Notes under the pieces: generated by a model
What the model was told of the DNA's origin: nothing
Seen by the model: only the letters and a program-made list of their open reading frames with translations
Database searches by the model: none
Program-made: the position numbers and the translations under genes
In this document: positions 38,014-62,357 of the stretch, piece by piece
Position numbering within the stretch: the first letter of the stretch is position 1
Layout: each line of letters begins with the position of its first letter
IMG/VR virus record: IMGVR_UViG_3300036770_003925
Coordinates: 231 to 64,230 of that record
Strand: one strand, 5' to 3'
DNA from: a virus
Taxonomy: Duplodnaviria; Caudoviricetes
Length of the DNA: 64,000 bases

Positions 38014-38019
38014 ACTTGC

Positions 38020-43813: not shown

Positions 43814-44054
43814 ATACAATATTATTGAAGTTTATAGTTTTACGTTAGGAGATGTTTCAGATCCTGAAATTTATGCAGGACATAAGCTATATGAATGGCA
43901 ACATAGCGAAATGGGTAAATATTGTATGAAAAATTGTTTAGAAACACCGACATATGAAATTAGACCATGTTTTAGTTCATTTGGTTATAGAATATCTATT
44001 AAAGCAAGATTTACAGAGGAACAGCTAACATATTTCAACTTAAAATATAAATAG
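43782..44054 (+). CDS. hypothetical protein (start uncertain)
   Basis: GDV-x-DPEIYA...W...G motif; fills the gap after thyA. Confidence 0.5.
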   Translation: MDQLKPKWQSKYNIIEVYSFTLGDVSDPEIYAGHKLYEWQHSEMGKYCMKNCLETPTYEIRPCFSSFGYRISIKARFTEEQLTYFNLKYK

Positions 44055-44058
44055 TTTT

Positions 44059-44526
44059 ATGTTTATATTTACTATATTACCTGAACTTTTTGTACATTTA
44101 ATATTCGGCTTAGGAGTAAGTCTTACGATAGTAGGATTTTTTTTAAGCTTTATTCCATTCATTAGTGCATATAAACTACCTATTAAAATAGTTGGTTTTG
44201 CTATCTTGCTCTTTGGCACTTATTTAGAAGGTGGGTTGGCAGACAATAAAGAATGGGAACTCAAAGTAAAAGAAGTTGAAGCCCAAGTAGCTCAAGCTGA
44301 AGCTAAAGCCAGTGAAAAGAATATAGAGATACAAGAAAAAGTAGTTACAAAAACAAAAATTGTAAAAGAAAAGGGTGATGAAGTTATAAAATATATTGAT
44401 AGAGAAGTTGTTAAGAAAGAAGAAGTAATCAAATATATTGAGAATTGTCCTGTCCCGAAAGAAATTATAGATGCACATAATGCTGCTACAATATTAAATA
44501 AAGCCATAGAGGGTAATAAAAAATGA
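44059..44526 (+). CDS. putative inner-membrane spanin (Rz-like)
   Basis: N-terminal TM segments, periplasmic coiled coil, C-terminal Cys; overlaps the lipoprotein gene. Confidence 0.6.
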   Translation: MFIFTILPELFVHLIFGLGVSLTIVGFFLSFIPFISAYKLPIKIVGFAILLFGTYLEGGLADNKEWELKVKEVEAQVAQAEAKASEKNIEIQEKVVTKTKIVKEKGDEVIKYIDREVVKKEEVIKYIENCPVPKEIIDAHNAATILNKAIEGNKK

Positions 44527-44801
44527 AATACACTTTATTATTACCTATAATTTTGTTGTCAGGATGTGCATTTTTTAAACAACCTGTTCCAGTTGTACCA
44601 AAGTTTCCTAATGCAACTCCTGAGTTAATGAAGAAATGTGAAGACTTAAAAAAGATTGAAGGTGACAACGTATCCATAACTGATATGTTAAAAGTCATTG
44701 TTAGTAATTATACATTATATTACGAATGCTCGACTAAAGTAGAAGGTTGGCAAGAATGGTATGTTGAGCAAAAAAAACTATACGAGGCAATTAAAAAATG
44801 A
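44523..44801 (+). CDS. putative outer-membrane spanin lipoprotein (Rz1-like)
   Basis: Lipobox LSGC, Pro-rich linker, two further Cys. Confidence 0.65.
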   Translation: MKYTLLLPIILLSGCAFFKQPVPVVPKFPNATPELMKKCEDLKKIEGDNVSITDMLKVIVSNYTLYYECSTKVEGWQEWYVEQKKLYEAIKK

Positions 44802-45667
44802 AATCAATTTTTACCACATGTTTTATAGCACTATCAATTTGTGGTTGTGCATCAGGTCCAAATAATTATCAATTATATGCCGAAACACAAAAAGCAATCG
44901 CTCAAGCCAATGCAGTGGCAGAAACAGCAAGATTCAATGCCTTAGCAGAAATTGCTAAGACAGGTGATAGTGCTGCCAAAGTTGCAGCAGTGCTTAGTAT
45001 TCAACTTGGTAGCAACAATAATGGTGGGCACCGTACTCAACAAATAATGGCTGCACCCGAAGATTGGGACGCAAAATTGCTGAAATGGGCAGGCGTTTTA
45101 TTACCTGCAGCCATGCAAGGTTTAGCAGTAGGAGCCCAAATACATAATGCTAATACTCAAAAGCAAATAGCAATTACACAAAGCAACAATGCTTTAGCTA
45201 CAGCACAGAGTACCAATAACACATTCGCTGCAATGAGCGGTAATATGGCAACATCAAACACTAACATAGCAACTGTTGGATTTAATGCTGTAACTGCAGG
45301 CTCTACTGCATTAGTCAACGTAGCCAATGCTGGATTAAGTGCGACAAGAGCAACAGCAGCCAATGGATTTACTGCCACTCAAAATATAGCAACAGCAGGG
45401 TTGAATGCCACATCAACACTAGGTGCTAATGGTATTACAGGGGTTAATGCGGCTGCTAGTGCTGGACTTACTGCTACTACTAATTTAGGAACTGCTGGTA
45501 TTACAGGAGTCAATAATGCTATATCTAACGGAAATGCTTTAACAAATAATATAGCAACTGGTTATACTAGTGCTTTACAAACTGCTATTAATAAATTAAC
45601 TGGAACAACTACAACTACAACTACTACAACCACTACGACAACAAACAACACAGAGGTCAAACCATAA
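44798..45667 (+). CDS. lipoprotein with 11-residue Ala/Thr/Gly repeats and poly-Thr tail
   Basis: Lipobox-like ICGC; hendecad repeats. Confidence 0.6.
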   Translation: MKSIFTTCFIALSICGCASGPNNYQLYAETQKAIAQANAVAETARFNALAEIAKTGDSAAKVAAVLSIQLGSNNNGGHRTQQIMAAPEDWDAKLLKWAGVLLPAAMQGLAVGAQIHNANTQKQIAITQSNNALATAQSTNNTFAAMSGNMATSNTNIATVGFNAVTAGSTALVNVANAGLSATRATAANGFTATQNIATAGLNATSTLGANGITGVNAAASAGLTATTNLGTAGITGVNNAISNGNALTNNIATGYTSALQTAINKLTGTTTTTTTTTTTTTNNTEVKP

Positions 45668-45686
45668 CTTTTGATAAATACATATT

Positions 45687-46529
45687 ATGACTTCGAACGT
45701 AAGCATTGCAAACATTAATGTAGGATCATTACCAAACGATGGCACAGGAGATCCATTACGTGCTGCTTTTGAGAAAATTAATAATAACTTTAGTAATCTT
45801 GTAGCATCAAATGTATTTGCAAATTCATCAGTGGAAATGGTAGAATTAGAATTACTACCAAATGATAATATAACCACAACTAATATTGTAAACTTTAATC
45901 AAATCAATATTAATAACAATATTTCTCCAAGTACAGTTCCTGCTACTATTAACTTGACCGCAGTGTATGCAGAAAACGTTGTAACACCACCTGGACCATA
46001 TGGCAATCAAGAATATATACAAATTGGTAATACCCCAAATGATGGACAAGGTGATCCATTACGTGTTGCGTTTGGTAAAATCAATAACAATTTTAGTAAT
46101 TTATTTTTTACTACAACAAATACAACAACCACATATACTGTGGGATTAGGTGATCAGGTTATATTTGAAACAGATGTAAACAATTTTACTCAAGCAGAAT
46201 TTCAAATTAGAAGTAGTGATAGTGAAGGACCTAATAGCCAAAGTATACTTATTAGTGCACAACTTAAGAATAGTGGATTGGGTGTGCGTTGGGTAGGCTA
46301 TGGAACAACATTTGAAGGGGACGCATTAACACGTTATAATATGGATGTAATAGGTGGCAATGTAGTCATTATTGCACAGCCACTAGCAAACACAGTGATG
46401 ACACATTTTATAGCAAGTTCAATTACATGGCAGGGCAGTTCATTACCTGGCTTAGATTTACAGTTAGATGGGTATTCAAATGCGCTAATGGCAACGGAAA
46501 ATGATTTAAATATAGCGACTGAAAACTAA
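45687..46529 (+). CDS. baseplate/fibre-connector-like structural protein (gp9/gp10-type N-terminal motif, duplicated)
   Basis: IN(V/I)G-x-x-PNDG-x-GDPLR-x-AF-x-KINNNF occurs twice. Confidence 0.7.
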   Translation: MTSNVSIANINVGSLPNDGTGDPLRAAFEKINNNFSNLVASNVFANSSVEMVELELLPNDNITTTNIVNFNQININNNISPSTVPATINLTAVYAENVVTPPGPYGNQEYIQIGNTPNDGQGDPLRVAFGKINNNFSNLFFTTTNTTTTYTVGLGDQVIFETDVNNFTQAEFQIRSSDSEGPNSQSILISAQLKNSGLGVRWVGYGTTFEGDALTRYNMDVIGGNVVIIAQPLANTVMTHFIASSITWQGSSLPGLDLQLDGYSNALMATENDLNIATEN

Positions 46530-46930
46530 TGCGAGCAAGAGAATTTATTAATGAACAAAAGTTAAGTGACGTTCACGATGGATTGGACGTTGCTGCAAAA
46601 GCTTTACCTAATACCTTTGTATTACCTGAACTAAAAAATCAAGACTTTTATGATTTATATCGGTTTGGTGTGGCAATAGCTGATGTACGCGGTAATATGG
46701 GTGATGTAAAAAATATTGATCCATATAAACCTGAATTTCGTGCTGAGACAACTTGGGGTGAAAATCAAATTGTAAGTAGTTTTGATCCCAACATCGGTAA
46801 AGTTATAGACCAAGCACTAAAGAAAGTACATAAATCAGGAAAACGTGCAGTAAGCACACCAGGTAGTCAAGAGTTTGATGATACACTAAAACAATCACCT
46901 ATTAAAGCTTTTAAAGGATATAAAAGATGA
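46529..46930 (+). CDS. putative internal head protein
   Basis: MRAREFINE N-terminus; ends PIKAFKGYKR. Confidence 0.6.
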   Translation: MRAREFINEQKLSDVHDGLDVAAKALPNTFVLPELKNQDFYDLYRFGVAIADVRGNMGDVKNIDPYKPEFRAETTWGENQIVSSFDPNIGKVIDQALKKVHKSGKRAVSTPGSQEFDDTLKQSPIKAFKGYKR

Positions 46931-47301
46931 GAGCAGTAGAATTTATATCTGAAGAAAAACGTGGTAAAATTACAAAGGATCAACAGTTTCCTACTAGAGG
47001 ATTACATAAATTCCGTGACAACGATTTTCAAGATAGACACTACGAAATGAATCGTTTGGGAATGGCGTTAGCTAGTACAGATGGAGAAACATTGCCAGTA
47101 CTTGATAACGAATCGTACACAGGTAAATGGAATACCGTACATCCTTATACTGAAGTCGAACAAAAAATGCTAAAAAAAGCATTTCAAGCATTAGGGACTT
47201 TACATAAAGATTTAAACAATGGTGATTTACGCAGTCAGGAACCTCCCGGTGGCAACACAACAAGTATAGTAAAACCATTTAAGGGTTATAAGAAAAAATA
47301 A
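46927..47301 (+). CDS. putative internal head protein, paralog of previous
   Basis: MRAVEFISE N-terminus; ends VKPFKGYKKK. Confidence 0.6.
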   Translation: MRAVEFISEEKRGKITKDQQFPTRGLHKFRDNDFQDRHYEMNRLGMALASTDGETLPVLDNESYTGKWNTVHPYTEVEQKMLKKAFQALGTLHKDLNNGDLRSQEPPGGNTTSIVKPFKGYKKK

Positions 47302-47347
47302 TTATAAGCTAATTCTTACTAAGTAATCTTATCATTGAGGATTACTA

Positions 47348-48046
47348 ATGAAAGAAATTATTGATATCAACAAAACAATTGACCTAGTAAAAATTAAATT
47401 TTATAATGAATGGTTATACGCTAATCATATCTATGATGAAGGTGATAGTCAATTCCATAAAGAACTAACTACTCAAGTAGTACAAAAATATATCGATCCA
47501 TTAAACTTACCTAAGAATGCTAAAATATTAGACCTAGGATGCGGTCCTGGTTATTTTTTAGATGAAATGAAACAACGTGAATATACTGATATTACTGGTA
47601 TAACATTAAGCCCGGGTGATGTTAAGATTTGTGAAGACAAAGGTCATAAAATTAAAAAATATGATTTAAGTTTTTTGCCGCAAACAGATGGATATTATGA
47701 TGAAAGTGTTGACTTTATATTCTTAAGACATGCATTAGAACATAGTCCTTATCCAATCTTTTCACTAATTGAATATAATAGGGTGCTTAAACAAGGAAGT
47801 AAAATTTATGTTGAAGTTCCTGCACCCGATTGTGAAAGACAACATGAATTCAATGCTAATCATTATAGTATATTGGGTTCAATGCAATTAGGAGCATTAT
47901 TAATACGTGCAGGTTTCAATATTGATGTTTTTAACAACCTTGAGTTTGATTTGCAAGTACCAAACAATGAAGGTAATCTAAAAACCTGTAAAGAAAAGTT
48001 TTATTGTATCGTAGCTACTAAAGTCAAGCCATTAGATATTAAATAA
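47348..48046 (+). CDS. class I SAM-dependent methyltransferase
   Basis: ILDLGCGPG, RHALEHS, RVLKQG. Confidence 0.85.
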   Translation: MKEIIDINKTIDLVKIKFYNEWLYANHIYDEGDSQFHKELTTQVVQKYIDPLNLPKNAKILDLGCGPGYFLDEMKQREYTDITGITLSPGDVKICEDKGHKIKKYDLSFLPQTDGYYDESVDFIFLRHALEHSPYPIFSLIEYNRVLKQGSKIYVEVPAPDCERQHEFNANHYSILGSMQLGALLIRAGFNIDVFNNLEFDLQVPNNEGNLKTCKEKFYCIVATKVKPLDIK

Positions 48047-48052
48047 AAATTA

Positions 48053-48078
48053 CATACCTATATAAATATATAGGTATG
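48053..48078 (+). promoter_or_regulatory. late promoter TATAAATA in the loop of a perfect hairpin that buries the terminase ATG
   Basis: catacctata-taaata-tataggtatg. Confidence 0.7.
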
Positions 48079-49629
48079 AATAAATCCGGTACCGCTACAT
48101 TAATAAAAGATCCATATGTAAAAACAGTTTTTAAGACACAACAAGAACTTGACGATTTCATTAAATGTTGTGATCCTGTAAATGGTTACTTACATTTTAT
48201 GGATAATTTTTTTTATATACAACACCCTACTAAAGGGTCAATGGTATATCATCCATACGCATATCAAAAACGTTTAATAGAAACATATCATAACTATCGT
48301 TTTAGTATATCTTTAATGCCAAGACAAAGTGGTAAATCTACAAGTGCTGCTGGTTATCTATTATGGTATGCTATGTTTGTTCCTGATAGCACAATATTAA
48401 TTGCTGCACACAAGTACACAGGTGCACAAGAAATCATGCAGCGTATACGTTATGCATATGAAAACTGTCCTATGCATATTAAAGCAGGTGTTACTACTTA
48501 TAATAAAGGTAGTCTAGACTTTGAGAACGGCAGTCGAATAGTTTCAGCAACTACAACAGAAAATACAGGTCGTGGTATGAGTATTTCACTACTGTACTTA
48601 GATGAATTTGCGTTCGTCAGACCAACCATAGCGGAACTATTTTGGACTAGTATTACGCCAACATTAGCAACTGGTGGTAAAGCAATTATAACAAGCACTC
48701 CCAACAGTGATGAGGATCAATTTGCTTTAATTTGGAAATTAGCTAATAAAACTGAAGACGAATATGGTAATCAAACAGAATTAGGAAAGAATGGTTTTAG
48801 AGCCTATAAAGCAGATTGGTGGGAACAACCAGGACGTGATGAAGCTTGGGCTAAAGAAATGCGAGCACAACTTGGAGAAGAACGTTTTAGGCGTGAAATA
48901 GGGTGCGAATTTATTATAGCAGATGAGACACTTATAGCTCCTACTACATTGGTTGATTTAGAAGGTATAGAACCTGTACAACGTATGGGACAAGTTCGTT
49001 GGTATAAAAAACCTGAGAAAGGTAACATATATGCTATAGGATTAGACCCAAGTCTTGGAACAGGAAGTGATCCTGCAGCAATACAAATATATGAAGCTAA
49101 TACTACAATACAAGTAGGTGAATGGAAGCATAATCAAACTGATATCCCAAATCAAGTCAAACTATTAGCACAAATATGTAAGTATATTGAAGAATGTACA
49201 GGAGAACCTAACAACATTTATTACAGTATAGAAAATAATACTATTGGTGAAGCTGCATTAGTTTCCTTAGCTGAATATGGAGAAAGCAATATTCCTGGAA
49301 TCTTTTTGAGTGAACATGGAAAGAAAAGAAAAGGTTTTAATACGACACATAAGGTTAAATTAGCAGCATGTGCTAAGTTTAAGACATTGGTTGAGAGTAA
49401 AAAGATGAAGGTCCATAGTAGAAGTTTGGTCAGTGAGTTAAAAACCTTTGTTGCATTAGAGGGTAGTTATAAAGCTAAGATTGGTGAAACAGATGATTTA
49501 GTTATGGCTAGTTTATTGGTTGTACGTATGTTACAGCATTTGAGTGATTATCATATAGATTTAGAAACACAAATACGTGACCACGATGAATATATAGCAC
49601 CATTACCATTCTTCGCTGTTCTTAATTAA
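48076..49629 (+). CDS. terL: terminase large subunit (T4 gp17-like)
   Basis: PRQSGKS Walker A, LYLDEFAFV, ITSTPN, nuclease GLDPS...DDLVMA. Confidence 0.93.
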   Translation: MNKSGTATLIKDPYVKTVFKTQQELDDFIKCCDPVNGYLHFMDNFFYIQHPTKGSMVYHPYAYQKRLIETYHNYRFSISLMPRQSGKSTSAAGYLLWYAMFVPDSTILIAAHKYTGAQEIMQRIRYAYENCPMHIKAGVTTYNKGSLDFENGSRIVSATTTENTGRGMSISLLYLDEFAFVRPTIAELFWTSITPTLATGGKAIITSTPNSDEDQFALIWKLANKTEDEYGNQTELGKNGFRAYKADWWEQPGRDEAWAKEMRAQLGEERFRREIGCEFIIADETLIAPTTLVDLEGIEPVQRMGQVRWYKKPEKGNIYAIGLDPSLGTGSDPAAIQIYEANTTIQVGEWKHNQTDIPNQVKLLAQICKYIEECTGEPNNIYYSIENNTIGEAALVSLAEYGESNIPGIFLSEHGKKRKGFNTTHKVKLAACAKFKTLVESKKMKVHSRSLVSELKTFVALEGSYKAKIGETDDLVMASLLVVRMLQHLSDYHIDLETQIRDHDEYIAPLPFFAVLN

Positions 49630-49648
49630 GCATGGACTAAATATAACT

Positions 49649-51958
49649 ATGCCACTAGATAAAAATTCATATAACTTAAAATTATATAACCTTTTGAAGA
49701 CAAGAGGTTATCGTCCTGTTCCATTAGATAGTAAGGGCGAACGTTCAGAAGCACCCCAAGAAGCAGATGTTTTCAAATTTACTTTTTCAAAAGATGATGA
49801 AAAAGTAGGTACAATGTATGCTACTGTAGAAGAAGGTGATATAGTCCTTTACTATGATGAACAAGAGGTTAGTGGTTCAAGTGATGCAAATACAAGTGGA
49901 ACAGAGTTTACAGATAGTTTTAGTGGATTAGTTAGACATTTAAAACACTGGGCAATGACAAGACAATTAGGTTTTAGAACAGAACCAGATGATAAATTAG
50001 CCAGTGACATGGCACAAAGGGAATATATGAAAAAGAAAGAAAACATTAGCGAGGGATACTACCCCATGGGTAAATCAGCAAGTTACAATGATGCTGTACC
50101 TACTGTAAAGATTATATTGCACCATACTCGCCAAATACAAGAAGGTGAGCAGCGTTTTCGCCATGTTAATAAAATCTTTTTAGAGAATAGTTTAGGTGAA
50201 AGAATTTTAGCACCAACTATCCGTCCAGGTATTGCACAAGTATATGCTAGACATTTAGCCGAAGGTGGTATACCAAATGATGAGCGTTGGAATCATATTA
50301 AAAGCCTTTGTGAAGATTATACCAAAATGGCAGGCTTTGTCCGTGCCGTAAAAAATAATCAATTTAATGAATCAGCACAACAATTAGTTAATGAAGGAGT
50401 AAATCATTACCAAGGTTTACGTGAAACATTAGGTAGGATGCGTGGTCATCGTGGTTACAATACCTATTTTGAAAGTTGGACACCAACATTAATGGAAGAT
50501 GAAAGTTCAGACAATACATTAAATGAGTTATTTGTACAAGAAACGTTAGATCCTAGAATAGAGAGTGTTCTTCCAATATTAAGTAAGTTAAGAAAAACAG
50601 TTGGTGAGATGAAAGAAGTAAATGAGTTAGCAGAATGGGCTGAAGAATTAACAGAGGCACCAGGAAGTGAAACATTAGCGAATAATGAAAAAACAGAAAA
50701 GCAACGATTAGATGCTTTTGATTTAGAAGAAAGTGATGATGCCGTAAAAGCAGGACAAACTGCCCGTGATAAAATTAAAAAGCCTGCGTTTATGCGTAAA
50801 GCAGCAGGTGAGAAACCAGCAACATTAGGTGATGTAGAGCGTAGTCAACAACATCGTAGTAGCCAAGCAATGGTCGGACAAAAAGGCCAAGAAGTTGAAG
50901 AAAGCGGACTACAGGCATATCTTGGTAATAAGAAGTATGGGAAAGCTGGCATGGACGCATTACGCAAAGCAGGTCGTGATGGTGCTAGCAAAGAAAAGAT
51001 GGCAAACATTCGTGCCAAATATGATAAGTTAGATGAAGAAGGTATGGAAGAAGGTTGGAATGATAGATTAGATGATCCAGATAGGTATGAGGAATATTTG
51101 GAAAGACTCAGAGACCTAGCCGACTACAATCGTAAAAGAGATATAGAGGATCCTCCTCAAAAACATAAAGCTCCTACAGACGATAGTAAAAAACAAGCTG
51201 ATGAATCTGTAGACGATATGTTTAGTTTAAGCGGTAAACTGCCACCTACTGATAGAATAGATAAAGTTGGTGGACAGGATAAGTCATTTGATGAAAAAAT
51301 GATAGCTAACACCATTAAGCATTTATTACAAAAAAATCCTAGTTTGTCACAAGATGAATTAAAAGGCAAGTCTGCTGCTGAATTAATTAGCATGTTAAGA
51401 GAAGGTGTGGCGGAAGGCGTTGGCGGATGGTCGGGACCATTGTATGACCCTGCTCTACAAGGCAATGGTAAGAAACAACGATATGAAATGATGTTCAAAA
51501 ACGGACAAGTAAAGCGATTTAGTGCCATGAATGATAATGAGGCAAGAAAGATTGCTGCTGGGCACGGAGCCAAAAGTGTTATCAAGATGAAAGGCAATGT
51601 TCCTGGTGACAAGATAGGAGAGCAAGGTGTGGCGGAAGACCTTGATGCTAACCAAAAGCGTGTAGGTCAATTAGGCCCAACTGAAAAAGTTAAAAACAAT
51701 AACATCGGTAAATTAGTAGGTGCTAATGAATCATTGGAGTTAAATGAAATGGATAAGTCACAACCATCAAGTGATAGAGGCGGTGAGAGTTCAGGTAACC
51801 CATATGCTAAAGGTGGTAAGGCTACACCAATCAAAGCAAAAGATGCTGAGAAAGATGCTGAAAAGGCATTAAACAAGTCTATGGATAAGGCTCATAAGAA
51901 AGATGTGAAAGAGGGTCAAGAAGACCTCGATGCTATACTAAGAATTATAAGAAAGTAA
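49649..51958 (+). CDS. large acidic putative head/internal protein with many potential prohead-protease sites
   Basis: Late promoter; recurrent hydrophobic-x-E junctions (NISE, FNE, LME, LTE, LEE, LDE, GVAE x2, LNE, VKE). Confidence 0.6.
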   Translation: MPLDKNSYNLKLYNLLKTRGYRPVPLDSKGERSEAPQEADVFKFTFSKDDEKVGTMYATVEEGDIVLYYDEQEVSGSSDANTSGTEFTDSFSGLVRHLKHWAMTRQLGFRTEPDDKLASDMAQREYMKKKENISEGYYPMGKSASYNDAVPTVKIILHHTRQIQEGEQRFRHVNKIFLENSLGERILAPTIRPGIAQVYARHLAEGGIPNDERWNHIKSLCEDYTKMAGFVRAVKNNQFNESAQQLVNEGVNHYQGLRETLGRMRGHRGYNTYFESWTPTLMEDESSDNTLNELFVQETLDPRIESVLPILSKLRKTVGEMKEVNELAEWAEELTEAPGSETLANNEKTEKQRLDAFDLEESDDAVKAGQTARDKIKKPAFMRKAAGEKPATLGDVERSQQHRSSQAMVGQKGQEVEESGLQAYLGNKKYGKAGMDALRKAGRDGASKEKMANIRAKYDKLDEEGMEEGWNDRLDDPDRYEEYLERLRDLADYNRKRDIEDPPQKHKAPTDDSKKQADESVDDMFSLSGKLPPTDRIDKVGGQDKSFDEKMIANTIKHLLQKNPSLSQDELKGKSAAELISMLREGVAEGVGGWSGPLYDPALQGNGKKQRYEMMFKNGQVKRFSAMNDNEARKIAAGHGAKSVIKMKGNVPGDKIGEQGVAEDLDANQKRVGQLGPTEKVKNNNIGKLVGANESLELNEMDKSQPSSDRGGESSGNPYAKGGKATPIKAKDAEKDAEKALNKSMDKAHKKDVKEGQEDLDAILRIIRK
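51402..51638 (+). repeat. 15-bp direct repeat AAGGTGTGGCGGAAG flanking an in-frame 222-nt module
   Basis: Identical copies at 51402-51416 and 51624-51638. Confidence 0.85.
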
Positions 51959-51967
51959 TTCTCCCAA

Positions 51968-51991
51968 AAACCGCACAAAAAAGTGCGGTTT
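51968..51991 (+). terminator. hairpin/terminator after 769-aa gene
   Basis: aaaccgcac-aaaaaa-gtgcggttt. Confidence 0.6.
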
Positions 51992-52002
51992 ACCACATCT
52001 GG

Positions 52003-52043
52003 GATAAATAGTTATTGACACGCTCTGTTTTATAGTATATATT
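52003..52043 (+). promoter_or_regulatory. tandem late (GATAAATA) and sigma70 (TTGACA-17-TATATT) promoters of the SSB gene
   Basis: Direct motif match. Confidence 0.55.
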
Positions 52044-52111
52044 ACACAGTGTGTTTAGGCAATTTTTAGGCACAAAACAAAGACCATCTTAATGAAATAA
52101 GGAGAAATATT

Positions 52112-53128
52112 ATGGCAAGTTTAGCAGATATCCGCGCAAGAATCGCAGCGCAAGAAAACAAAACACAAAAAGGTCAAGTAACGACCGACAACGCAGTATA
52201 TCCCCACTGGAACATGGAAGAAGGCACAATCGCAACGATTCGCTTTTTGCCTGACGCAGACAACAATAACACTTTCTTTTGGGTAGAACGACAAATCATC
52301 AAACTTCCTTTCAATGGATTGAAAGGTGATCCTAATGTAAAACAACTTACAGTACAAGTACCATGTGCTGAAATGTATGGTGATGTTTGTCCAGTACTAA
52401 CAGAAGTTCGTCCATGGTATAAGGATGAAACATTAAAAGAAATGGCTAATAAGTATTGGAAAAAACGCAGTTATCTATTCCAAGCTTTTGTTCGTCAAAA
52501 TCCAATTGGTGATGACAAAACTCCAGCTAACCCTATTCGTAGACTTGTCATTAGTCCACAAATCTTTACTATCATTAAGTCTAGCTTAATGGATCCTGAA
52601 ATGGAAGAACTACCTACTGATTTTGTTCGTGGTCTTGATTTTAATATTAAGAAAACAAGCAAAGGTGGTTATGCTGATTATTCAACAAGTAATTGGGCTA
52701 GAAAAGAAAGTCCATTAACTGAGGCAGAACAAGCAGCAATTGAGGCACATGGACTATTTAATCTAGCAGACTTTTTACCAAAGCGTCCTTCAGAAGCAGA
52801 ATTGAACATCATCAAAGAAATGTTTGAGGCTAGTGTAGATGGACAACCATTTGACAATGAGCGTTGGGGTAGTTATTATCGCCCATACGGAGTAGATGCT
52901 CCACAGCATACACAAGACGATGGTGAAGTTGCTGAGAAAAAAGTATCTGTCCCTGTTAGCAAAAAAGAAACAGTTAAACCAACTGTAGCTAAGGAAGAAA
53001 CAGCTCCTTGGGAAGATGAACCAACTGAAGCAAGTGCACCTGTTAGTGTTCCATCAAAGTCAACATCTAGTGATAAAGCGCAAGATATTTTGGCAATGAT
53101 TCGTAACCGTCAAAACAAAGCAGCCTAA
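52112..53128 (+). CDS. single-stranded DNA-binding protein (T4 gp32-like)
   Basis: IRFLP, CP, K-x-x-x-Y, G-x-DF-x-IKK-x-x-KGGYADY-x-x-S, acidic linker. Confidence 0.85.
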   Translation: MASLADIRARIAAQENKTQKGQVTTDNAVYPHWNMEEGTIATIRFLPDADNNNTFFWVERQIIKLPFNGLKGDPNVKQLTVQVPCAEMYGDVCPVLTEVRPWYKDETLKEMANKYWKKRSYLFQAFVRQNPIGDDKTPANPIRRLVISPQIFTIIKSSLMDPEMEELPTDFVRGLDFNIKKTSKGGYADYSTSNWARKESPLTEAEQAAIEAHGLFNLADFLPKRPSEAELNIIKEMFEASVDGQPFDNERWGSYYRPYGVDAPQHTQDDGEVAEKKVSVPVSKKETVKPTVAKEETAPWEDEPTEASAPVSVPSKSTSSDKAQDILAMIRNRQNKAA

Positions 53129-53136
53129 GGTAATAC

Positions 53137-53157
53137 AGGGAGGATAACATCCTCCCT
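53137..53157 (+). terminator. stem-loop after SSB gene
   Basis: agggaggat-aac-atcctccct. Confidence 0.55.
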
Positions 53158-53173
53158 AATTTAGGAGAATACC

Positions 53174-53410
53174 ATGACATTACCAGATGAAAGATACCGA
53201 GCCCTTAAGCAAGGTAAACGGTTATTGGAAGAATTATGCGATCCAGGTCGCACACCACGAGTACCTGCATTGATTAGAGATAGAGCAAGGGCAGCATTAA
53301 AACATTATCCAAGTGATTACGAATTAGATCGTATTGCTGATAGTTGCCCAGATATCCTTGATAAAGTCTCATTTAATGATAGAATGTATATGAAAGTGGC
53401 AAACAAATAA
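53174..53410 (+). CDS. hypothetical protein
   Basis: MTLPDERYRA...PRVP...LKHYP; SD AGGAG. Confidence 0.65.
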   Translation: MTLPDERYRALKQGKRLLEELCDPGRTPRVPALIRDRARAALKHYPSDYELDRIADSCPDILDKVSFNDRMYMKVANK

Positions 53411-53423
53411 TAAGGAGAGACCC

Positions 53424-54491
53424 TTGGGGAAACCATTTGATGTTAGCAAATTTAGAAAAGATATTACCAAGTCCATTGAAGGACTTAGTATCGGATTTAA
53501 CGACCCAACAGATTGGGTTAGTACAGGAAATCACGCACTTAATTATCTCATTAGTGGTGATTTTAATAAAGGGGTACCTCTTGGTAAAGTTACTGTCTTT
53601 GCCGGAGAGTCAGGATCAGGAAAAAGTTACATATGTGCGGGCAACCTTGTCCGTCACGCACAACAACAAGGAATCTTTGTAGTATTAGTTGATACTGAAA
53701 ACGCACTTGATGAAGATTGGTTACATAACTTGGGAGTTGATACGAACGAGGAAAAACTATTAAAACTAAACATGGCAATGATTGATGATGTTGCTAAAAC
53801 AATTAGTGAATTTATGAAGGGCTATCGTATTATTCCAAATGAAGACCGTCCTAAAGTATTATTCATTATTGATAGTTTAGGAATGTTACTCACTCCAACC
53901 GATGTTAATCAATTTGAAGGCGGTGATTTAAAAGGTGATATGGGTCGTAAACCAAAAGCATTAACAGCACTTGTAAGAAATTGTGTTAATATGTTTGGTA
54001 GCCATAATGTAGGATTAGTCGCAACTAATCACACTTATGCTAGTCAAGATATGTTTGATCCTGATGATAAAATCAGTGGTGGGCAAGGCTTTATCTATGC
54101 AAGTTCAATTGTAGTAGCAATGAAAAAATTGAAACTTAAAGAAGATGAAGATGGCAATAAAACAAGTGAAGTACTTGGTATTCGTAGCGCATGTAAGGTT
54201 ATGAAAACAAGATATGCGAAACCTTTTGAAAGCGTACAAGTAAAGATCCCATATTCCACAGGAATGAATCCATATAGTGGATTATTAGACTTGTTTGAAA
54301 AATCAGGATTATTAGTTAAAGAAGGTAATAGGTTAAGTTATACTACGCTTGATGGCGAGATTATCAAATACTTTCGTAAAGGTTGGGAAACTAATAGTGA
54401 TGGATGTTTAGATAAGGTTATGAGTGAGTATAGTAAAAGAAATGAAAATAAACTAAGTAATGTAACAACTGAGGAGGAAGTTACAGAATGA
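53424..54491 (+). CDS. uvsX: RecA-like recombinase
   Basis: GESGSGKS, VDTENA, IIDSLG, NHTY, SGG; TTG start with SD AAGGAG. Confidence 0.9.
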   Translation: MGKPFDVSKFRKDITKSIEGLSIGFNDPTDWVSTGNHALNYLISGDFNKGVPLGKVTVFAGESGSGKSYICAGNLVRHAQQQGIFVVLVDTENALDEDWLHNLGVDTNEEKLLKLNMAMIDDVAKTISEFMKGYRIIPNEDRPKVLFIIDSLGMLLTPTDVNQFEGGDLKGDMGRKPKALTALVRNCVNMFGSHNVGLVATNHTYASQDMFDPDDKISGGQGFIYASSIVVAMKKLKLKEDEDGNKTSEVLGIRSACKVMKTRYAKPFESVQVKIPYSTGMNPYSGLLDLFEKSGLLVKEGNRLSYTTLDGEIIKYFRKGWETNSDGCLDKVMSEYSKRNENKLSNVTTEEEVTE

Positions 54492-54733
54492 GTTTGACAT
54501 TGATAAGTGAAGCATGGGAAGCATTGCGCCAACATATCCAACTGGCAGATAAAAGTGATGCCGCTGATTCATTAGTTAATTTACTAATTGATCATGGATA
54601 TGATGTTGATGAAATCAAAGAGAATTTTCGTGGTGACAAAGATATCGCAAATGCTTTAGTTTATTTTTCAGAGCAGGAAGAGTACGAAGAAGATTGGGAA
54701 GACGAAGACACATCCGACGACGATGAATGGTGA
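54488..54733 (+). CDS. small acidic hypothetical protein
   Basis: Coupled ORF between uvsX and uvsY. Confidence 0.6.
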   Translation: MSLTLISEAWEALRQHIQLADKSDAADSLVNLLIDHGYDVDEIKENFRGDKDIANALVYFSEQEEYEEDWEDEDTSDDDEW

Positions 54734-54737
54734 TTGA

Positions 54738-55196
54738 GTGAATTACTACTCAAAGATAACGGATGATCTGTCCGTTATCCCTGATTTTATTAGCCATTAT
54801 GAAAACGAATTACATTTGGCTAAACGTGATGTTAAGATATTTGGTAATGTTGAGAAAAATGTATCATCATTACCAGGTATCACAGAACATCGTTTTAATC
54901 AACTGCAAGAAATCGAAGCAGTATTAAATTTCTTAAACATACAATTAAAGAAAATTCGCCGAAAACATTTTCAAAAATACCTAGAGGCGTATAATAGAGT
55001 ATTGACTAGCCGTGATGCTGAAAAGTATGTTGATGGCGAGGATGAAGTAATTGATTTTGAAACTATTATTAATGACGTAGCATTGCTTAGAAATAAATGG
55101 TTGGGTGTAATGAAAGGACTTGACAGTAAAAATTTTATGTTAGGTCATATCGTTAGGTTACGTTCAGCTGGTATGGAAGATGTTACTGTAAGTTAA
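54738..55196 (+). CDS. uvsY: recombination mediator (UvsY-like)
   Basis: Helical protein with Y-x-x-x-Y...AEKYVDGE...K-x-LD-x-K...I-x-x-LR-x-AG, adjacent to uvsX. Confidence 0.7.
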   Translation: MNYYSKITDDLSVIPDFISHYENELHLAKRDVKIFGNVEKNVSSLPGITEHRFNQLQEIEAVLNFLNIQLKKIRRKHFQKYLEAYNRVLTSRDAEKYVDGEDEVIDFETIINDVALLRNKWLGVMKGLDSKNFMLGHIVRLRSAGMEDVTVS

Positions 55197-55204
55197 GGAA
55201 AGAT

Positions 55205-55918
55205 ATGACAAACGTAGTAAAAAATTTAACAGTTAAATCAAGTTTGGCTGATTTGTTTTTAGAAATTCCAGAAAAAGCAGAAGCATTACAAACTGTAAAA
55301 ATACCTTTACTTGTAATTGCTTGTTGTGCTTATAGATTATCTGAAAACAGATCAGAAAAATATTCTATTTTAGATAATCTTGTATTAAAAGGTGTAAATG
55401 AATCTGATTATATATTAGCAGATAAGATTAAAGATTATTATAGTAAAAAACTAGCGTGGTTAAAACTAAAAGGAAATAAACTAACTAAGTTTCGTGAAGA
55501 ACTTGGGAACCTTCTATATGATGATTTTAGTACACAATTAGGTGAGTATACCTATCCATCAAAATATATGGGTATGGCGTATCGTTTACCTTATTTTTAT
55601 TGTTACGATACTAGTGTAGATGAATTCTGTACAAAAGATAACATTTCATACATACCATTTAAGGGTAGTAAATCATTAATTTATATTACTGTGTTAAAAA
55701 GATATGTAAGGCATCAATTATGGTATGATTATTATTTTCATGATGAAAATAACTTTAAATATTTTATCCCAATAAGTAAAGAAAATACTTGTCGCAGTTT
55801 AGTAGATAATATTTTAAAAAAACATACATTAGTGGTAAGTGGAGTTTTTAAAGTTGTTAGAAATGATTATGATTTTTATGTGCCAAACAACGACAAATAT
55901 ATATTAGATATTGAGTAA
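55205..55918 (+). CDS. hypothetical protein
   Basis: Long ORF with SD AAGGA. Confidence 0.6.
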   Translation: MTNVVKNLTVKSSLADLFLEIPEKAEALQTVKIPLLVIACCAYRLSENRSEKYSILDNLVLKGVNESDYILADKIKDYYSKKLAWLKLKGNKLTKFREELGNLLYDDFSTQLGEYTYPSKYMGMAYRLPYFYCYDTSVDEFCTKDNISYIPFKGSKSLIYITVLKRYVRHQLWYDYYFHDENNFKYFIPISKENTCRSLVDNILKKHTLVVSGVFKVVRNDYDFYVPNNDKYILDIE

Positions 55919-56516
55919 TATGATAGTACCAACACATACTAATTATTATGTAAAAGTTTTTGACAATGTATTAGAGAAGAAATTTTGTCAGAAAATTATT
56001 ACACGGATTAATAAAAATGATGTTAATTGGCTCACACATAATTGGAATGTAGGGTATGATAAAGAAACAGGGGAAAATCTTCCCAACCAATCAATTCATG
56101 ACCAAGAACTTTCAATTGTAACCATTGAAACAAAAGAAGCAAGGTTATTAACAGATAACTTATGGGAAGTTATTAGACGTTATTATGATGAGGTATTAGA
56201 AGGATTCACTTGGTATACTGGTTGGGAAGGGTACTCACATGTACGTTTTAATAAGTATGATGTTAATACAAAAATGAGTAAACATTGTGACCACATTAAA
56301 ACATTATTCACAGGTAATCGTCGAGGAATACCTGTGCTTACTGTGTTAGGAGCATTAAATGACAATTATGAAGGTGGTAATTTAATTATTGGAAATGATG
56401 AAGTGATATTAAAAACAGGGTCTGTTGTAATATTTCCTAGTAATTTTATGTATCCTCATGAAGTGCAATTAGTAACTAAAGGTACACGTTATAGTTTTGT
56501 AAGTTGGGTATATTGA
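55911..56516 (+). CDS. 2OG-Fe(II) oxygenase (prolyl-hydroxylase-like)
   Basis: HCD...LNDNYEGG...FPS...H-x-V...G-x-RYS. Confidence 0.85.
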   Translation: MSNMIVPTHTNYYVKVFDNVLEKKFCQKIITRINKNDVNWLTHNWNVGYDKETGENLPNQSIHDQELSIVTIETKEARLLTDNLWEVIRRYYDEVLEGFTWYTGWEGYSHVRFNKYDVNTKMSKHCDHIKTLFTGNRRGIPVLTVLGALNDNYEGGNLIIGNDEVILKTGSVVIFPSNFMYPHEVQLVTKGTRYSFVSWVY

Positions 56517-56522
56517 CACAAA

Positions 56523-56556
56523 TTGTAATAATTCTGTAATAATAATATGCTAATAT
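56523..56556 (+). promoter_or_regulatory. Pho box promoter upstream of phoX
   Basis: TTGTAAT-AATT-CTGTAAT (11-bp period), 10 nt before a TAATAT -10. Confidence 0.65.
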
Positions 56557-56593
56557 ATATGTAAATATAAAAAATCATTTACAGGAGAAAACA

Positions 56594-58798
56594 ATGAATG
56601 ATATTGAAAACACCTCTAATAATAAACATTTAAGTGAAATTATTAGTGAGATGATGATTAATCCTAATCGCCGTAATTTCTTAAAAGGAAGTTCGGCTTT
56701 TTTAACGGCGGCGACAGGGGCAACTTTAGCAGGCTGTGCTAGTAGTGATGATGATCTACTACCAACACCTAGCACACTGAGTTTCGAAGCAGTTCCAAAG
56801 AACACCTTTGACAAGGTTACATTGCCCCCGGGTTATCAATTCACAGTGCTACATGGCACAGGAGATAGGCTAGTCAGTACTATCCCTGCCTATTCAAACA
56901 AGGGCGTGGAGACAGATGATTGGAGTCAGCGAGTAGGTGACCACCACGATGGCATTGAATTATTTCATATTGATGCCAATGGTAAGTATACTACACAGAT
57001 GACTGGTCGTGCTGTGTTGGCAATGAATCACGAAAGTTCAGCAGACGCACATTTTTTCCATCCCCATGGGCAAACCAGTAACGGTCAAAATGGTAAAAAG
57101 TTTGATCAGTTTGGTCAATGGGATTTGGGTGTTCGTCCCGGATTAGAAGTATTAAAAGAAATCAATCACCACGGTGTCAGTCTCGTGGAGATTAACAAGG
57201 GTAGCACAGGTTGGACATACAAGGTAGATAGCGGATTAAATAGAAGGGTTACGGCACAAACTCCCGTGCGAATCAGCGGACCGGCCGCAGACATGGCTAA
57301 CATAAAAGGTTTAATGTCTACCAAATTTGATCCAACAGGTGCTACTGCTCGAGGCACATTAAACAACTGCGGCACAGGGTCTACACCTTGGGGCACCATG
57401 TTGACCTGTGAAGAAAACTGGGCTGTATATACTCATATGCCCAAAGGCAGCAATCCAGTAGATGCCAGACTGGTTCAAACTCGCAAGCGTTATGGCGTAG
57501 CAGCAGAACCACTATCCGGTAGTGCCACAGCCAGCACCAGTCAAGGATGGCATACTCCTTCAGACCTACCCGACACAGGCCTGCGTTTTAGTCGCTGGGA
57601 TACCAGTGCTCGTGGAGCCACAGCACATGAAGACTTTCGCAATGAACCACATACTTTTGGTTACAATGTAGAAATTGATCCTCTCAATCCCAATGCTCAA
57701 CCAGCCAAGCGTGTGGCCATGGGTCGTTTCGCACACGAAGCCGCTGTATATGGTAAACTAGAAGCAGGTAAGCCTGTGGTGTTTTACATGGGCTGCGATA
57801 GTCGTAATGAGTATATCTATAAGTTTGTCAGTGCTCAACCTTGGAACCCTGCTGATGTAGGCGGCGGTATGGCTGCTGGTGACAAATATCTCAACGAAGG
57901 TAAATTGTATGTGGCCAAGTTTAACAATGATGGAACAGGCACATGGATTGAATTGAGTATTGCCAATCCTGCTATTGCCAACTATGCCACATTCAAATTT
58001 AATAATCAAGCAGAAATATTTGTATTCACTCGCATAGCCGCTGATGCTGTAGGTGCTACCAAGATGGATCGTCCAGAGTGGGGTGCTGTAAATCCTGCCA
58101 ATGGCGAAATCTATTTTGCCCTGACCAACAACTCAGCCAGCAATCGCACTCCAATGACCACAGATGGTGCCAATCCAAGAAGTTATGCTGATCCTGATGG
58201 CAACAAGCGCACAGGCAATCCCAATGGACATATCATTCGTTGGCGTGAGACTGCTACAGGATTTCAATGGGATATCTTCTTGTTTGGTTCAGAAGAGGAC
58301 AATGCTTCCAGTAACATTTCAAAACTCACTGCCAAGAATTCGTTTAGTAGCCCAGACGGATTGTGGTTTAGCAAGGCCACAGGTCTTTGCTGGATACAGA
58401 CAGATGATGGTGCGTTTACAGATGAAGTACATAATCAACTGTTAGTAGCCATTCCTGGTCGGGTAGGAGATGGTGGGGCTCGAACCATTACCAATACACT
58501 AAGCGGTGCTACTAAAGATCAGGCCACATTTGTGGGTGCTGAATTAGGTGAGACCAAACTGCGTAGGTTCTTAACTGGCCCAGCAGGTTGTGAAATTACT
58601 GGTATTGCTGAGTCAGCAGATGGACGCACTATATTTGTCAATGTTCAGCATCCAGGCGAGGACACAGAAGCCACTTTCTGGAAAGGATCTGCTCCACAAA
58701 GTCAATGGCCAGCCAATCAAGGCTATGGATCACAAGGTCGTCCGCGTTCAGCCACTTTGGTAATCACCAAGGTTGACGGCGGACTAATAGGCGTATAA
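56594..58798 (+). CDS. phoX: PhoX alkaline phosphatase (Tat-exported lipoprotein)
   Basis: NRRNFLK Tat motif and LAGC lipobox; HHDG, NHE, NNC...TPWGT-x-LTCEEN, GRFAHE, MDRPE, SPDGL, CEITG, NVQHPG. Confidence 0.93.
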   Translation: MNDIENTSNNKHLSEIISEMMINPNRRNFLKGSSAFLTAATGATLAGCASSDDDLLPTPSTLSFEAVPKNTFDKVTLPPGYQFTVLHGTGDRLVSTIPAYSNKGVETDDWSQRVGDHHDGIELFHIDANGKYTTQMTGRAVLAMNHESSADAHFFHPHGQTSNGQNGKKFDQFGQWDLGVRPGLEVLKEINHHGVSLVEINKGSTGWTYKVDSGLNRRVTAQTPVRISGPAADMANIKGLMSTKFDPTGATARGTLNNCGTGSTPWGTMLTCEENWAVYTHMPKGSNPVDARLVQTRKRYGVAAEPLSGSATASTSQGWHTPSDLPDTGLRFSRWDTSARGATAHEDFRNEPHTFGYNVEIDPLNPNAQPAKRVAMGRFAHEAAVYGKLEAGKPVVFYMGCDSRNEYIYKFVSAQPWNPADVGGGMAAGDKYLNEGKLYVAKFNNDGTGTWIELSIANPAIANYATFKFNNQAEIFVFTRIAADAVGATKMDRPEWGAVNPANGEIYFALTNNSASNRTPMTTDGANPRSYADPDGNKRTGNPNGHIIRWRETATGFQWDIFLFGSEEDNASSNISKLTAKNSFSSPDGLWFSKATGLCWIQTDDGAFTDEVHNQLLVAIPGRVGDGGARTITNTLSGATKDQATFVGAELGETKLRRFLTGPAGCEITGIAESADGRTIFVNVQHPGEDTEATFWKGSAPQSQWPANQGYGSQGRPRSATLVITKVDGGLIGV

Positions 58799-58834
58799 AA
58801 TATAAACAGTACAATTTGAAATTAAAGGAAAATT

Positions 58835-59842
58835 ATGAAAAAATTATTATTAACATTAGCAACATCATTTTTTGCTTTTACAGCACAGGCAGCAGAGATT
58901 ACAGGGGCAGGGGCAACCTTTCCCTATCCTATCTATGCTAAGTGGGCTGAAGCATATAACAAAGCAACAGGTAATACTCTAAACTATCAAAGTATTGGTA
59001 GTTCAGGTGGTATTCGCCAAATCAACAACAAAACGGTGTCATTCGGGGCAAGTGATGCTCCAGTAAAAGGAGAAGACCTTGACAAATTGGGACAAGTTCA
59101 ATTCCCTGCTATCATCGGTGGTACTGTACCTGTTATCAATCTTGATGGTTTTAAGCCAGGTGAACTTCGTATCACAGGACCTGTTATGGCAGAAATGTTT
59201 ATGGGTAATATAACTAAATGGAATGATCCAAAATTTGCAGCCCTTAACCCAGGTAAAAAGTTACCCGATATGAATATCACTGTGGTTCATCGTGCTGATG
59301 GTTCTGGCACCACATTTAACTGGACTGACTACCTTACTGTGATCAGCCCAGAGTGGGAAAAGCGTGTGGGTCGTGGTGCTGCTGTAAAATGGCCTGCTAC
59401 CAGTTCAGTAGGAGGAAAAGGTAACGAAGGTGTTGCTGCCAATGTAAATAGAATTAAAGGCAGCATAGGTTATGTAGAATATGCATATGTTAAAAAGAAT
59501 TTGATGAATTATATGCTGTTACAGAACCTGGCTGGTAACTTTGTTGCCCCTGATGATACAACTTTCGCAGCGGCCGCAGCGGGAGCAGATTGGTTCTCAG
59601 TTCCAGGAATGGGCTTGAGTATTGTAAATCAGGGCGGCAAAGATACTTGGCCTGTTACAACAGCAAGTTTTATTATTATGTATAAAGAACCTGCAGACAA
59701 AAAAGCTAGTCAAGAAGTCATCAAGTTTTTTGACTGGGCATTCAAGAACGGCAAGAAACTTAGTGAGGAACTCGATTATGTTCATTTACCAGACAAATTA
59801 CAAAATGATATCCGTAGTAAAGTTTGGAATCAAATTAAGTAA
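58835..59842 (+). CDS. pstS: phosphate ABC transporter periplasmic binding protein
   Basis: GAGATFPYP, YQSIGSSGG, FGASD, HRADGSGTT, GKGNEGVA. Confidence 0.95.
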   Translation: MKKLLLTLATSFFAFTAQAAEITGAGATFPYPIYAKWAEAYNKATGNTLNYQSIGSSGGIRQINNKTVSFGASDAPVKGEDLDKLGQVQFPAIIGGTVPVINLDGFKPGELRITGPVMAEMFMGNITKWNDPKFAALNPGKKLPDMNITVVHRADGSGTTFNWTDYLTVISPEWEKRVGRGAAVKWPATSSVGGKGNEGVAANVNRIKGSIGYVEYAYVKKNLMNYMLLQNLAGNFVAPDDTTFAAAAAGADWFSVPGMGLSIVNQGGKDTWPVTTASFIIMYKEPADKKASQEVIKFFDWAFKNGKKLSEELDYVHLPDKLQNDIRSKVWNQIK

Positions 59843-59876
59843 TTGTCATAAAATTGTAGTAATAAAAAATTGATAT
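59843..59876 (+). promoter_or_regulatory. second Pho box promoter, upstream of the plcP-agt operon
   Basis: TTGTCAT-AAAA-TTGTAGT, 10 nt before TGATAT. Confidence 0.6.
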
Positions 59877-59923
59877 CCTTGTAAATAGTGTTGAGAGTCA
59901 CAAGCTCTCAATACTAACAAGGA
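59876..59923 (+). promoter_or_regulatory. long hairpin containing GTAAATA on the 5' arm and the SD on the 3' arm
   Basis: tccttgt-aaa-tagtgttgagag-tcacaag-ctctcaatacta-acaagga. Confidence 0.6.
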
Positions 59924-59931
59924 GTCACAAA

Positions 59932-60147
59932 ATGAAACTTGAAATGCGTGCCTGGGATCTAGATGTCAAATTGGAATTAGAAGATGATGACAGTCTAGAC
60001 CAATTACAGGTTTTGGATACAGTAAAGAATTTACTTGAAACATTAGCACAGTATGAAAAGGTTGATATAACAATTAAACAATTATATACTGAAGAAAATG
60101 TTCAAGACCGTCATATTGAAGATGACGATCACGATATAATGGCTTAA
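59932..60147 (+). CDS. small acidic hypothetical protein
   Basis: SD AAGGAG. Confidence 0.6.
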   Translation: MKLEMRAWDLDVKLELEDDDSLDQLQVLDTVKNLLETLAQYEKVDITIKQLYTEENVQDRHIEDDDHDIMA

Positions 60148-60170
60148 GTAGTACAGGTTCTCCTAATGAA

Positions 60171-60953: not shown

Positions 60954-61119
60954 CCCAACTGACATTCCTGGAAGAATACAACTACAATTTAAAGATGAAG
61001 TTACTTGTAGTGTAGCGTTACAAAACATGAATTATTGGGTTAAGTTTTCTTGGTTTAAAGTAGAGGGTAAATGTGAAAAAAATACTGATAGTAACAGACA
61101 ATATACGAGACCAAATTAA
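60916..61119 (+). CDS. small membrane/secreted hypothetical protein
   Basis: Hydrophobic N-terminus, two Cys; overlaps both neighbours. Confidence 0.4.
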   Translation: MWILFLIVVNIYDPTDIPGRIQLQFKDEVTCSVALQNMNYWVKFSWFKVEGKCEKNTDSNRQYTRPN

Positions 61120-62065: not shown

Positions 62066-62066
62066 A

Positions 62067-62285
62067 ATGGGTGATTCGGCGGGTGGGTTTTTAGGAGTCT
62101 TTGAGCAAAGAGTAGGACAGTTACGAAAAAGACTCAAAGATGAATTAGAAAAAGATAAACCTATCCGCTGTCGCAGAACGCTTAAGAAAATAATTAGAGA
62201 AATTAAAGAATGGGAAGATGTACTACATCAACATCGTAAAGATTCGAAAAGATGCCCACATTGTGGTGAAAAATTAGATTTTTAA
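62067..62285 (+). CDS. small coiled-coil protein with terminal CPHC
   Basis: ORF; CxxC. Confidence 0.5.
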   Translation: MGDSAGGFLGVFEQRVGQLRKRLKDELEKDKPIRCRRTLKKIIREIKEWEDVLHQHRKDSKRCPHCGEKLDF

Positions 62286-62357
62286 ACCACAACACTTGCT
62301 AAATAGCAATGAACATGATATAGTTCTAGACAGACTTACAACACACAAGGAGAAAAT

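Follow-up and report, generated by a model that had tools for sequence, protein, structure and literature searches.

A short G+C-rich word, repeated in frame inside one gene of an uncultured phage, lies where similarity between related phages begins and ends, and the peptide it encodes resembles the cleavage site of a phage head protease. The gene, P0001 (769 aa, 49649-51958, + strand), belongs to the 64,000-nucleotide stretch analysed here (the window; positions 231 to 64,230 of IMG/VR record IMGVR_UViG_3300036770_003925), a fragment of a jumbo T4-related phage. We put at about 0.65 the probability that this word, here called the linker, is a standard in-frame junction for cassette exchange and at the same time a predicted head-protease site in phage polyproteins.

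The linker, AAGGTGTGGCGGAAG, occupies 51402-51416 and 51624-51638 on the + strand. A sequence search confirmed the two identical copies exactly 222 nt apart that a sequence-only reading of this DNA had reported, and revealed no third copy with up to two mismatches in the window; across all 64,230 bases of the record, the 12-base core has just these two occurrences. The copies share one reading frame of P0001, in which each encodes Gly-Val-Ala-Glu (GVAE). Ten of the 15 bases are G or C, against about 33% in the genome, and the codons GTG and GCG are as uncommon as that reading had held, supplying 9.9% of Val and 6.5% of Ala codons in the 37 long + strand open reading frames (ORFs) of the window. 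The sole other GVAE in the window, at nt 23719 within a 1883-aa repeat protein, uses the common codons GGT GTT GCT GAA. Translational bypassing between the copies, in the style of T4 gene 60, was considered and dropped; the intervening 74 codons are open and no stop follows copy 1.

Relatives of the gene (loci L003-L044) were fetched by protein similarity using query peptides that exclude the linker. Of the 42 GVAE sites in the open frames of these loci, 33 are written GGTGTGGCGGAA; with duplicates removed, the figure is 31 of 37 unique sites in 20 unique ORFs, where 0.11 would be expected from codon frequencies outside the linkers of the same ORFs (GGT 0.527, GTG 0.137, GCG 0.053, GAA 0.792). 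Positions -2 to +12 are near-invariant, while -3 and +15 carry 0.06-0.56 bits of information. Although E, Q and K all occur just ahead of the linker, the codon for that residue ends in AA at all 37 sites; the invariant block extends to the first base after the Glu codon, beyond which G/A and then C are less strictly kept (C in 29 of 37). The resulting consensus is AA GGT GTG GCG GAA G(G/A)C, with the peptide (E/Q/K)-G-V-A-E-(G/A/D). The word is kept across genomes of 33-48% G+C, and a 45% G+C relative in which GTG makes up 30% of Val codons has it at four of five GVAE sites. Comparison of these sites shows the linker to be conserved as DNA, silent positions included, and the earlier idea that identity at silent positions reflects constraint on the DNA is borne out in a set collected without the linker.

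The word is also widespread. An exact scan of IMG/VR for the 15-mer returned at least 137 stretches; among the matches listed, 176 of 180 unique occurrences have GVAE in their longest open frame, and many loci contain two to four linker copies. Since these were found by exact match, they bear on spread and frame, and silent-site conservation is addressed only by the 37-site set. In five large relatives the 12-mer occurs 4, 3, 3, 0 and 5 times, always in the forward orientation, with reversed-pattern controls at 0, and all four copies in one of them (G001) fall at GVAE codons inside ORFs. The repeat is thus found well beyond this genome, in relatives and in the IMG/VR stretches alike. A Chi-like hotspot was dropped as an explanation, the word being present only 0-5 times per 120-300 kb.

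P0001 itself combines a constant N-terminal core (N-core; 49649-50683, aa 1-345) with a variable cassette array and a constant C-terminal segment (DLDANQKRVGQL..., 51638-51958 including the stop codon, aa 664-769), all on the + strand. Its variable site contains two cassettes. Cassette A (51053-51415, aa 469-589, GWNDRL...LREGVAE) ends in linker copy 1 (AA GGT GTG GCG GAA G; GVAE at aa 586-589), and cassette B, the 74-codon module (51416-51637, aa 590-663), ends in linker copy 2 (GVAE at aa 660-663). We compared window positions 51101-51958 with all collected loci by blastn. In L029 and L030, similarity (97.5%) covers exactly 51402-51638, in each case within a different protein; the same module recurs in further different proteins of L031 (93.7%, 51402-51638), L033 (86.8%, 51397-51638) and L036 (80%, to 51638). 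L003 is 92% identical through cassette A up to 51415 and 95% identical from 51620, with an unlike 424-nt stretch of two other modules between, and in L018 and L019 similarity runs from 51624 (97.3%) and 51607 (95.8%). Contigs G006-G010, compared with window 44000-63900, share only scraps of 52-68 nt besides the 237-bp unit; as fragments, the contigs that carry cassette B elsewhere say little about overall kinship.

Absence of the module is equally clean. The homologue P0002, from a 251-kb contig, matches P0001 at about 98% identity over residues 363-589 and over the final 106, and reads ..REGVAE|DLDANQ.., lacking exactly the 74 codons of cassette B with one linker kept; this is the kind of orthologue, lacking the module and retaining one repeat, that the sequence-only reading had proposed to look for. 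In L019 and L034 the whole site is empty, one canonical linker leading straight into the C-terminal segment (..KLDE(E/Q)GVAEDLDANQ..). That segment is 72-97% identical at the nucleotide level in many relatives, its similarity begins at 51619-51644, and a hydrophobic-x-E linker always precedes it in them. The start of cassette A likewise follows a canonical GVAE in L004 and L041. The ends of similarity between phages and between genes fall on the linker, so that comparison shows modules to be inserted, deleted and replaced there: replacement in L003, absence in P0002 and empty sites in L019 and L034 agree with the proposed gain and loss at the repeat.

The upstream border of the array behaves in the same manner. 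What follows ..KYDKLDE in other phages is any of at least seven different sequences. P0001 carries at this hypervariable site, after ..KYDKLDEE, a decayed linker, GMEE (GGTATGGAAGAA, 51041-51052, + strand, aa 465-468), which is shared with L003 and P0002-P0005, all with the same partner. Canonical GVAE stands at the site in L019, L034, L026 and L004, canonical linkers here having five different partners, and others read LAE, DMAE, SFGE or EMEE. Among 120 family proteins, the 25 with both anchors show an anchor-to-anchor distance of 5-630 aa. Further upstream, a V-E-E (50894-50902, + strand, aa 416-418) before a conserved block at aa ~414-468 (85-88% nucleotide identity in relatives) is a possible decayed linker. 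In public metagenome contigs, the flank turns unlike behind 51418 in runs X5 (3) and X7 (2), before 51620-51624 in X1, X5 and X7, and behind 51638 in X2, where the continuation reads, translated by eye, as the start of the L032/L092 module. Run X7 has a coverage gap at ~51426-51596 with both flanks covered, a hole that we do not count as evidence. As a separate observation, P0174 and P0217 carry two linkers in direct tandem (..QGVAEGVAET.. or QGVTEGVAET), an empty cassette or a footprint of exchange.

The modules between linkers are small and diverse. From linker to linker, the collected loci yielded 110 unique modules, which fall into 93 clusters and measure 43-440 aa (median 75 aa). Most of the 64 open frames with at least two linkers have no Pfam family, the exceptions being Sigma70_r4, GNAT, cytidine/dCMP deaminase, GP88, DUF6321, DUF6934 and DUF5872. 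Cassette B is found in 107 proteins of 422-1346 aa, only eight of which contain the N-core. In almost every case a linker comes next, and the neighbours beyond that linker are many and varied; one such protein has 11 linkers. An AlphaFold2 (AF2) model from a 62-row alignment predicts a strand-strand-helix-strand core for cassette B with a predicted local distance difference test (pLDDT) score of 85-88, while both linkers score below 50. Cassette B has no PHROG family and no fold match in the PDB at E<=0.001; cassette A likewise has no PHROG family. The resemblance that the sequence-only reading saw between this module and a 1220-aa protein of the window did not survive, the best BLASTP E value being 5.7. 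That protein (32767-36429, + strand) has NT5C nucleotidase and kinase-like regions (a weak Kinase-PolyVal match) and is polyvalent-protein-like, without GVAE. Another locus, L033:2-2425 (+), encodes a polyprotein with seven GVAE-type linkers; its final module, a Sigma-70 region 4 domain (E 2.5e-16), is a candidate for a transcription factor packaged with the phage.

The linker peptide suggests a second role. T4 gp21 is described as cutting after Glu in L/I-X-E and so freeing head cargo from targeting peptides (PMC9026906). GVAE places Glu at P1 and the aliphatic Val at P3. Drifted linkers are still hydrophobic-x-Glu (GMEE, DMAE, LAE, SFGE, EMEE, DVEE, GVSE, GIAE, GVVE), which argues for a constraint on the peptide separate from that on the DNA. 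Peptidase_S77 (PF03420) is encoded in two of the five large relatives (E 8.4e-25 and 5.5e-29), in one of them between the portal and the major head protein, in a portal-protease-scaffold-capsid cluster. The predicted disorder of the linkers next to the folded core of cassette B, and the mass-spectrometry annotation of the PA5oct homologue of P0001 as a virion protein, also fit this role. We infer that the linker peptide is a head-protease site of the T4 gp21 type, which would imply cutting and packaging of the proteins that carry it.

These observations can be joined in one model. A clade of uncultured freshwater jumbo T4-related phages would use the linker to join small unrelated modules into polyproteins. 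Its 15-17 G+C-rich bases would be the only shared in-frame stretch between otherwise unlike cassettes, so that recombination at the linker could insert, delete or replace cassettes without loss of frame, within an array, between polyprotein genes or between co-infecting phages. Exchange may proceed through the phage's own homologous or microhomology recombination or template switching; genes for UvsX, UvsY and gp32 adjoin P0001. Linkers at junctions that still recombine would stay canonical, and those at fixed junctions, such as GMEE at 51041, would decay. Given a gp21-type site in the linker peptide, the 769-aa virion protein is predicted to be cut in the prohead into core, cassette A, the 74-aa cassette B and a C-terminal piece, and the small freed pieces may be packaged, possibly injected, cargo. 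The sequence-only reading had proposed recombination at a short repeat that doubles as a cleavage site; of its claims, the constraint on the DNA and the gain, loss and replacement of modules stand, the protease site at V-A-E is plausible, and the likeness to the 1220-aa protein falls. The fullest form of the model, in which one 15-17-base word does two jobs, as an in-frame cassette connector in the DNA and as a head-protease site that frees cargo in the peptide, amounting to an integron-like system for virion cargo, we hold at even odds.

Several points weigh against the combined reading. Recombination is read from comparison and not from observed events, and the cutting, packaging and injection of these proteins are predictions. 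A homology of 15-17 bp is short for UvsX-type homologous recombination. No contig joint skips 51417-51638 in runs X1, X2, X5 and X7 (span 50400-52100), so the excised 222-nt junction envisaged by the sequence-only reading did not appear, although contigs drop rare variants. The pair of P0001 and P0002 gives no direction, insertion here and deletion in P0002 fitting it equally, and the contigs with cassette B in other proteins represent only 2-13% of a genome, which limits what they say of kinship. No GVAE at all is present in 73 of the 120 listed family members, and the counts from the 15-mer scan are uninformative on silent-site conservation. With respect to cleavage, Val at P3 differs from the published L/I, Peptidase_S77 has 0 matches in the 64-kb record itself (a fragment about 16% complete), and the protease was not seen in three of the five large relatives, all incomplete.

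If the linker were a recombination junction only, GVAE would be a flexible spacer and the protein would work, or be packaged, uncut as one multidomain chain. We consider this unlikely: the direct evidence is all at the DNA level, Val is not the published P3 residue, and polyvalent proteins are described as deliverable without cutting (PMC5512222), whereas the hydrophobic-x-Glu kept by drifted linkers points to constraint on the peptide, a T4-type head protease is encoded in relatives, and the linkers are predicted to be exposed and disordered. A dedicated site-specific recombinase or homing-type nuclease that recognises the 15-17-mer, with programmed exchange in the manner of integrons or shufflons, seems improbable. 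Letter-for-letter conservation over ~15-17 bases across genomes of such different G+C content is more typical of a site recognised by a protein, but the motif has by inspection no dyad symmetry or self-complementarity, excised circles of ~222 bp would be very small, and no recombinase was noticed beside the gene in the window, no systematic search for one that co-occurs across genomes having been made.

Silent-site conservation might instead serve RNA or translation, through a pause at the rare GTG and GCG codons or an RBS (ribosome-binding site)-like AAGG/GGUG that lets each module fold first. The rarity of both codons here and the position of the sites at domain borders fit such a role, which we nonetheless regard as very improbable: the same letters stand where GTG is not rare, in the 45% G+C relative, the AA before and the G(G/A)C after the linker are conserved across different residues, and a pause leaves the similarity breakpoints at the linker unexplained. 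As for chance, or a one-off local duplication without wider meaning, a 64-kb window is by our own arithmetic expected to hold a couple of exact 15-mer pairs. Two or more copies of this 15-mer occurred in 0 of 100 dinucleotide shuffles, however, and the in-frame count (176 of 180 listed occurrences, from at least 137 IMG/VR stretches) together with the identity of 31 of 37 sites in relatives refutes this explanation, leaving it next to no probability.

The combined reading, an exchange junction that is also a predicted protease site, has partial counterparts in known phage systems. The T4 internal proteins IPI, IPII, IPIII and Alt carry a capsid targeting sequence and are cut by gp21, and the review that describes them suggests that the targeting sequence lets T4-like phages pack varied proteins (PMC9026906). 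The likeness lies in small, diverse head-loaded proteins, dispensable in T4, that are freed after Glu in a short hydrophobic-x-Glu motif, cutting being predicted in our case. Each T4 cargo has its own gene and its own N-terminal propeptide; here the predicted cargos follow one another in a single frame, attached to a constant virion protein, and recombination breakpoints fall on the codons of the predicted cut site, which are frozen at the DNA level.

PeSL cassettes of T4-type phages are bordered by a short repeated sequence that flanks non-essential variable genes, with recombination between copies (Arbiol et al. 2010, PMC2839356). The linker resembles PeSL in being a conserved short border sequence tied to such events: where related phages differ by an inserted, deleted or replaced module, the border falls exactly on the linker. 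It differs from PeSL, as that article presents it, in kind. PeSL is an intergenic, regulatory promoter plus terminator stem-loop, whereas the linker has 15-17 bases, lies inside the reading frame (both copies are in frame in ORF 49649-51958), keeps the frame and encodes a peptide. Mini-circles have been shown for PeSL; linker exchange is read from sequence comparison. In the gp38 adhesin of T-even phages, glycine-rich motifs separate hypervariable segments (PMC3157838), so that there too short conserved in-frame motifs part interchangeable variable segments of one gene. The gp38 motifs are described as the structural core of one domain with the segments as its loops, whereas the linkers are predicted to be disordered between independent, unrelated modules, with pLDDT below 50 and cassette B between them predicted to fold on its own.

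Polyvalent proteins of phages and conjugative elements join many unrelated effector-type domains in one polypeptide and are probably packaged and delivered (Iyer et al. 2017, PMC5512222). P0001 falls within their range of two to fifteen unrelated domains per polypeptide, since N-core, cassettes A and B and the C-terminal piece have separate distributions. As to the signature domains of the family (LPD, MuF, MPTase and the like), P0001 has no Pfam family at E<=0.01, and its N-core has one BFVD fold match to a protein named 'Large polyvalent protein-associated domain-containing protein' (E 4.1e-14, TM 0.37). Processing in polyvalent proteins is ascribed in that article to built-in MPTase peptidase domains (PMC5512222). 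The linker-bounded modules are for the most part very short and without a known family. The words 'linker' and 'shuffling' are absent from the main text of that article (PMC5512222). None of the systems compared combines an in-frame connector frozen as DNA with a protease motif, and a search of the open-access literature, whose coverage leaves out subscription journals, found nothing relevant on the linker or the idea, judging by the titles and abstract openings listed. The P0001 window adds another linker gene family and a clean presence/absence pair.

If the combined reading is true, the linker would act as a standard plug through which protein cargo is exchanged: any small module with linkers at its ends could move in frame into any linker-carrying polyprotein and be released in the head by the resident protease. 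The turnover in jumbo phages of large sets of small, functionally unassigned proteins, probably including many anti-defence or host-takeover factors, would be explained, and cargo in metagenomes could be found by a simple rule, splitting predicted proteins wherever the linker occurs. The linker would also be a natural example of selection on one sequence for two separate jobs, one as DNA and one as peptide, and could be adopted as it stands to load foreign proteins into large capsids. How the repertoires of head-internal proteins diversify beyond the one-gene-one-propeptide design of T4 becomes testable.

P0001 has more than 2150 homologues with a conserved N-terminus, 550-1139 aa long among the 120 listed. 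Its first ~316 residues are 27% identical in amino acid sequence to gp278 of Pseudomonas phage PA5oct, which is annotated 'virion structural protein, ESI-MS/MS', has the same synteny (after terminase, before UvsX) and lacks GVAE. Within the N-core, aa ~95-331 are 70-88% identical to relatives at the nucleotide level. The N-core matches phrog_13484 (E 1.3e-6) and its AF2 model has a mean pLDDT of 72.5; a PDB search gave no fold match at E<=0.001, the ESM Atlas yielded nothing usable, and the BFVD fold matches of the N-core, including the one named above, are uncharacterised phage proteins.

The 64,230-base record is a viral fragment, its completeness (~16%) estimated by CheckV, and the G+C content of the window is ~33%. 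A T4-type large terminase (48076-49629) lies directly before P0001, and gp32-, UvsX- and UvsY-like genes follow at 52112-55196 (gp32-like, 52112-53128). The closest terminase DNA is that of PA5oct and Rak2-like jumbo phages. The stretch is present in 20 public runs from 12 studies of freshwater, river, lake, wetland, aquaculture and subsurface metagenomes. The T4-type gene set also includes a protein with a gp9/10-type N-terminal domain (ORF 45687-46529), in which a 66-nt direct repeat of 82% identity (45732-45797 and 46035-46100, + strand) occurs; the domain appears duplicated because the PHROG matches fall in two stretches.

Other features of the window stand apart from the linker. Four radical-SAM genes (one with SPASM), followed by a C-methyltransferase, an NAD-dependent epimerase and a carbamoyltransferase (7095-15270, + strand, and 17560-23016), look like an island for sugar or metabolite modification. 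The 1883-aa ORF mentioned above (23026-28677, + strand) contains 14 or more tandem repeats, each ~65 aa (192-204 nt) long and bearing the motif WRPDPREPPYIYVWGNKYIP, and has no informative family match. A permuted tmRNA gene at 30142-30480 (+ strand; Rfam RF04321, 107.8 bits against a gathering threshold of 47, E 4.5e-20) encodes the tag peptide ANDDYFYQEVKLAA according to ARAGORN. It is followed by a homologue of Gram-negative porins (31636-32517, + strand; Porin_4, E 7.7e-19). At 36618-38050 (+ strand), a region without ORFs of at least 100 aa, five copies of a promoter-like repeat of 31-43 nt (TTGACAATAAATGG...TATAAT or TATACT), spaced 146-624 nt apart, are reminiscent of early-promoter cassettes. 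Phosphate-stress genes at 56594-59842 (+ strand) encode the alkaline phosphatase PhoX (E 1.5e-126) and a PstS-like phosphate-binding protein, and AhpC and CMD-family genes lie at 62358-63552.

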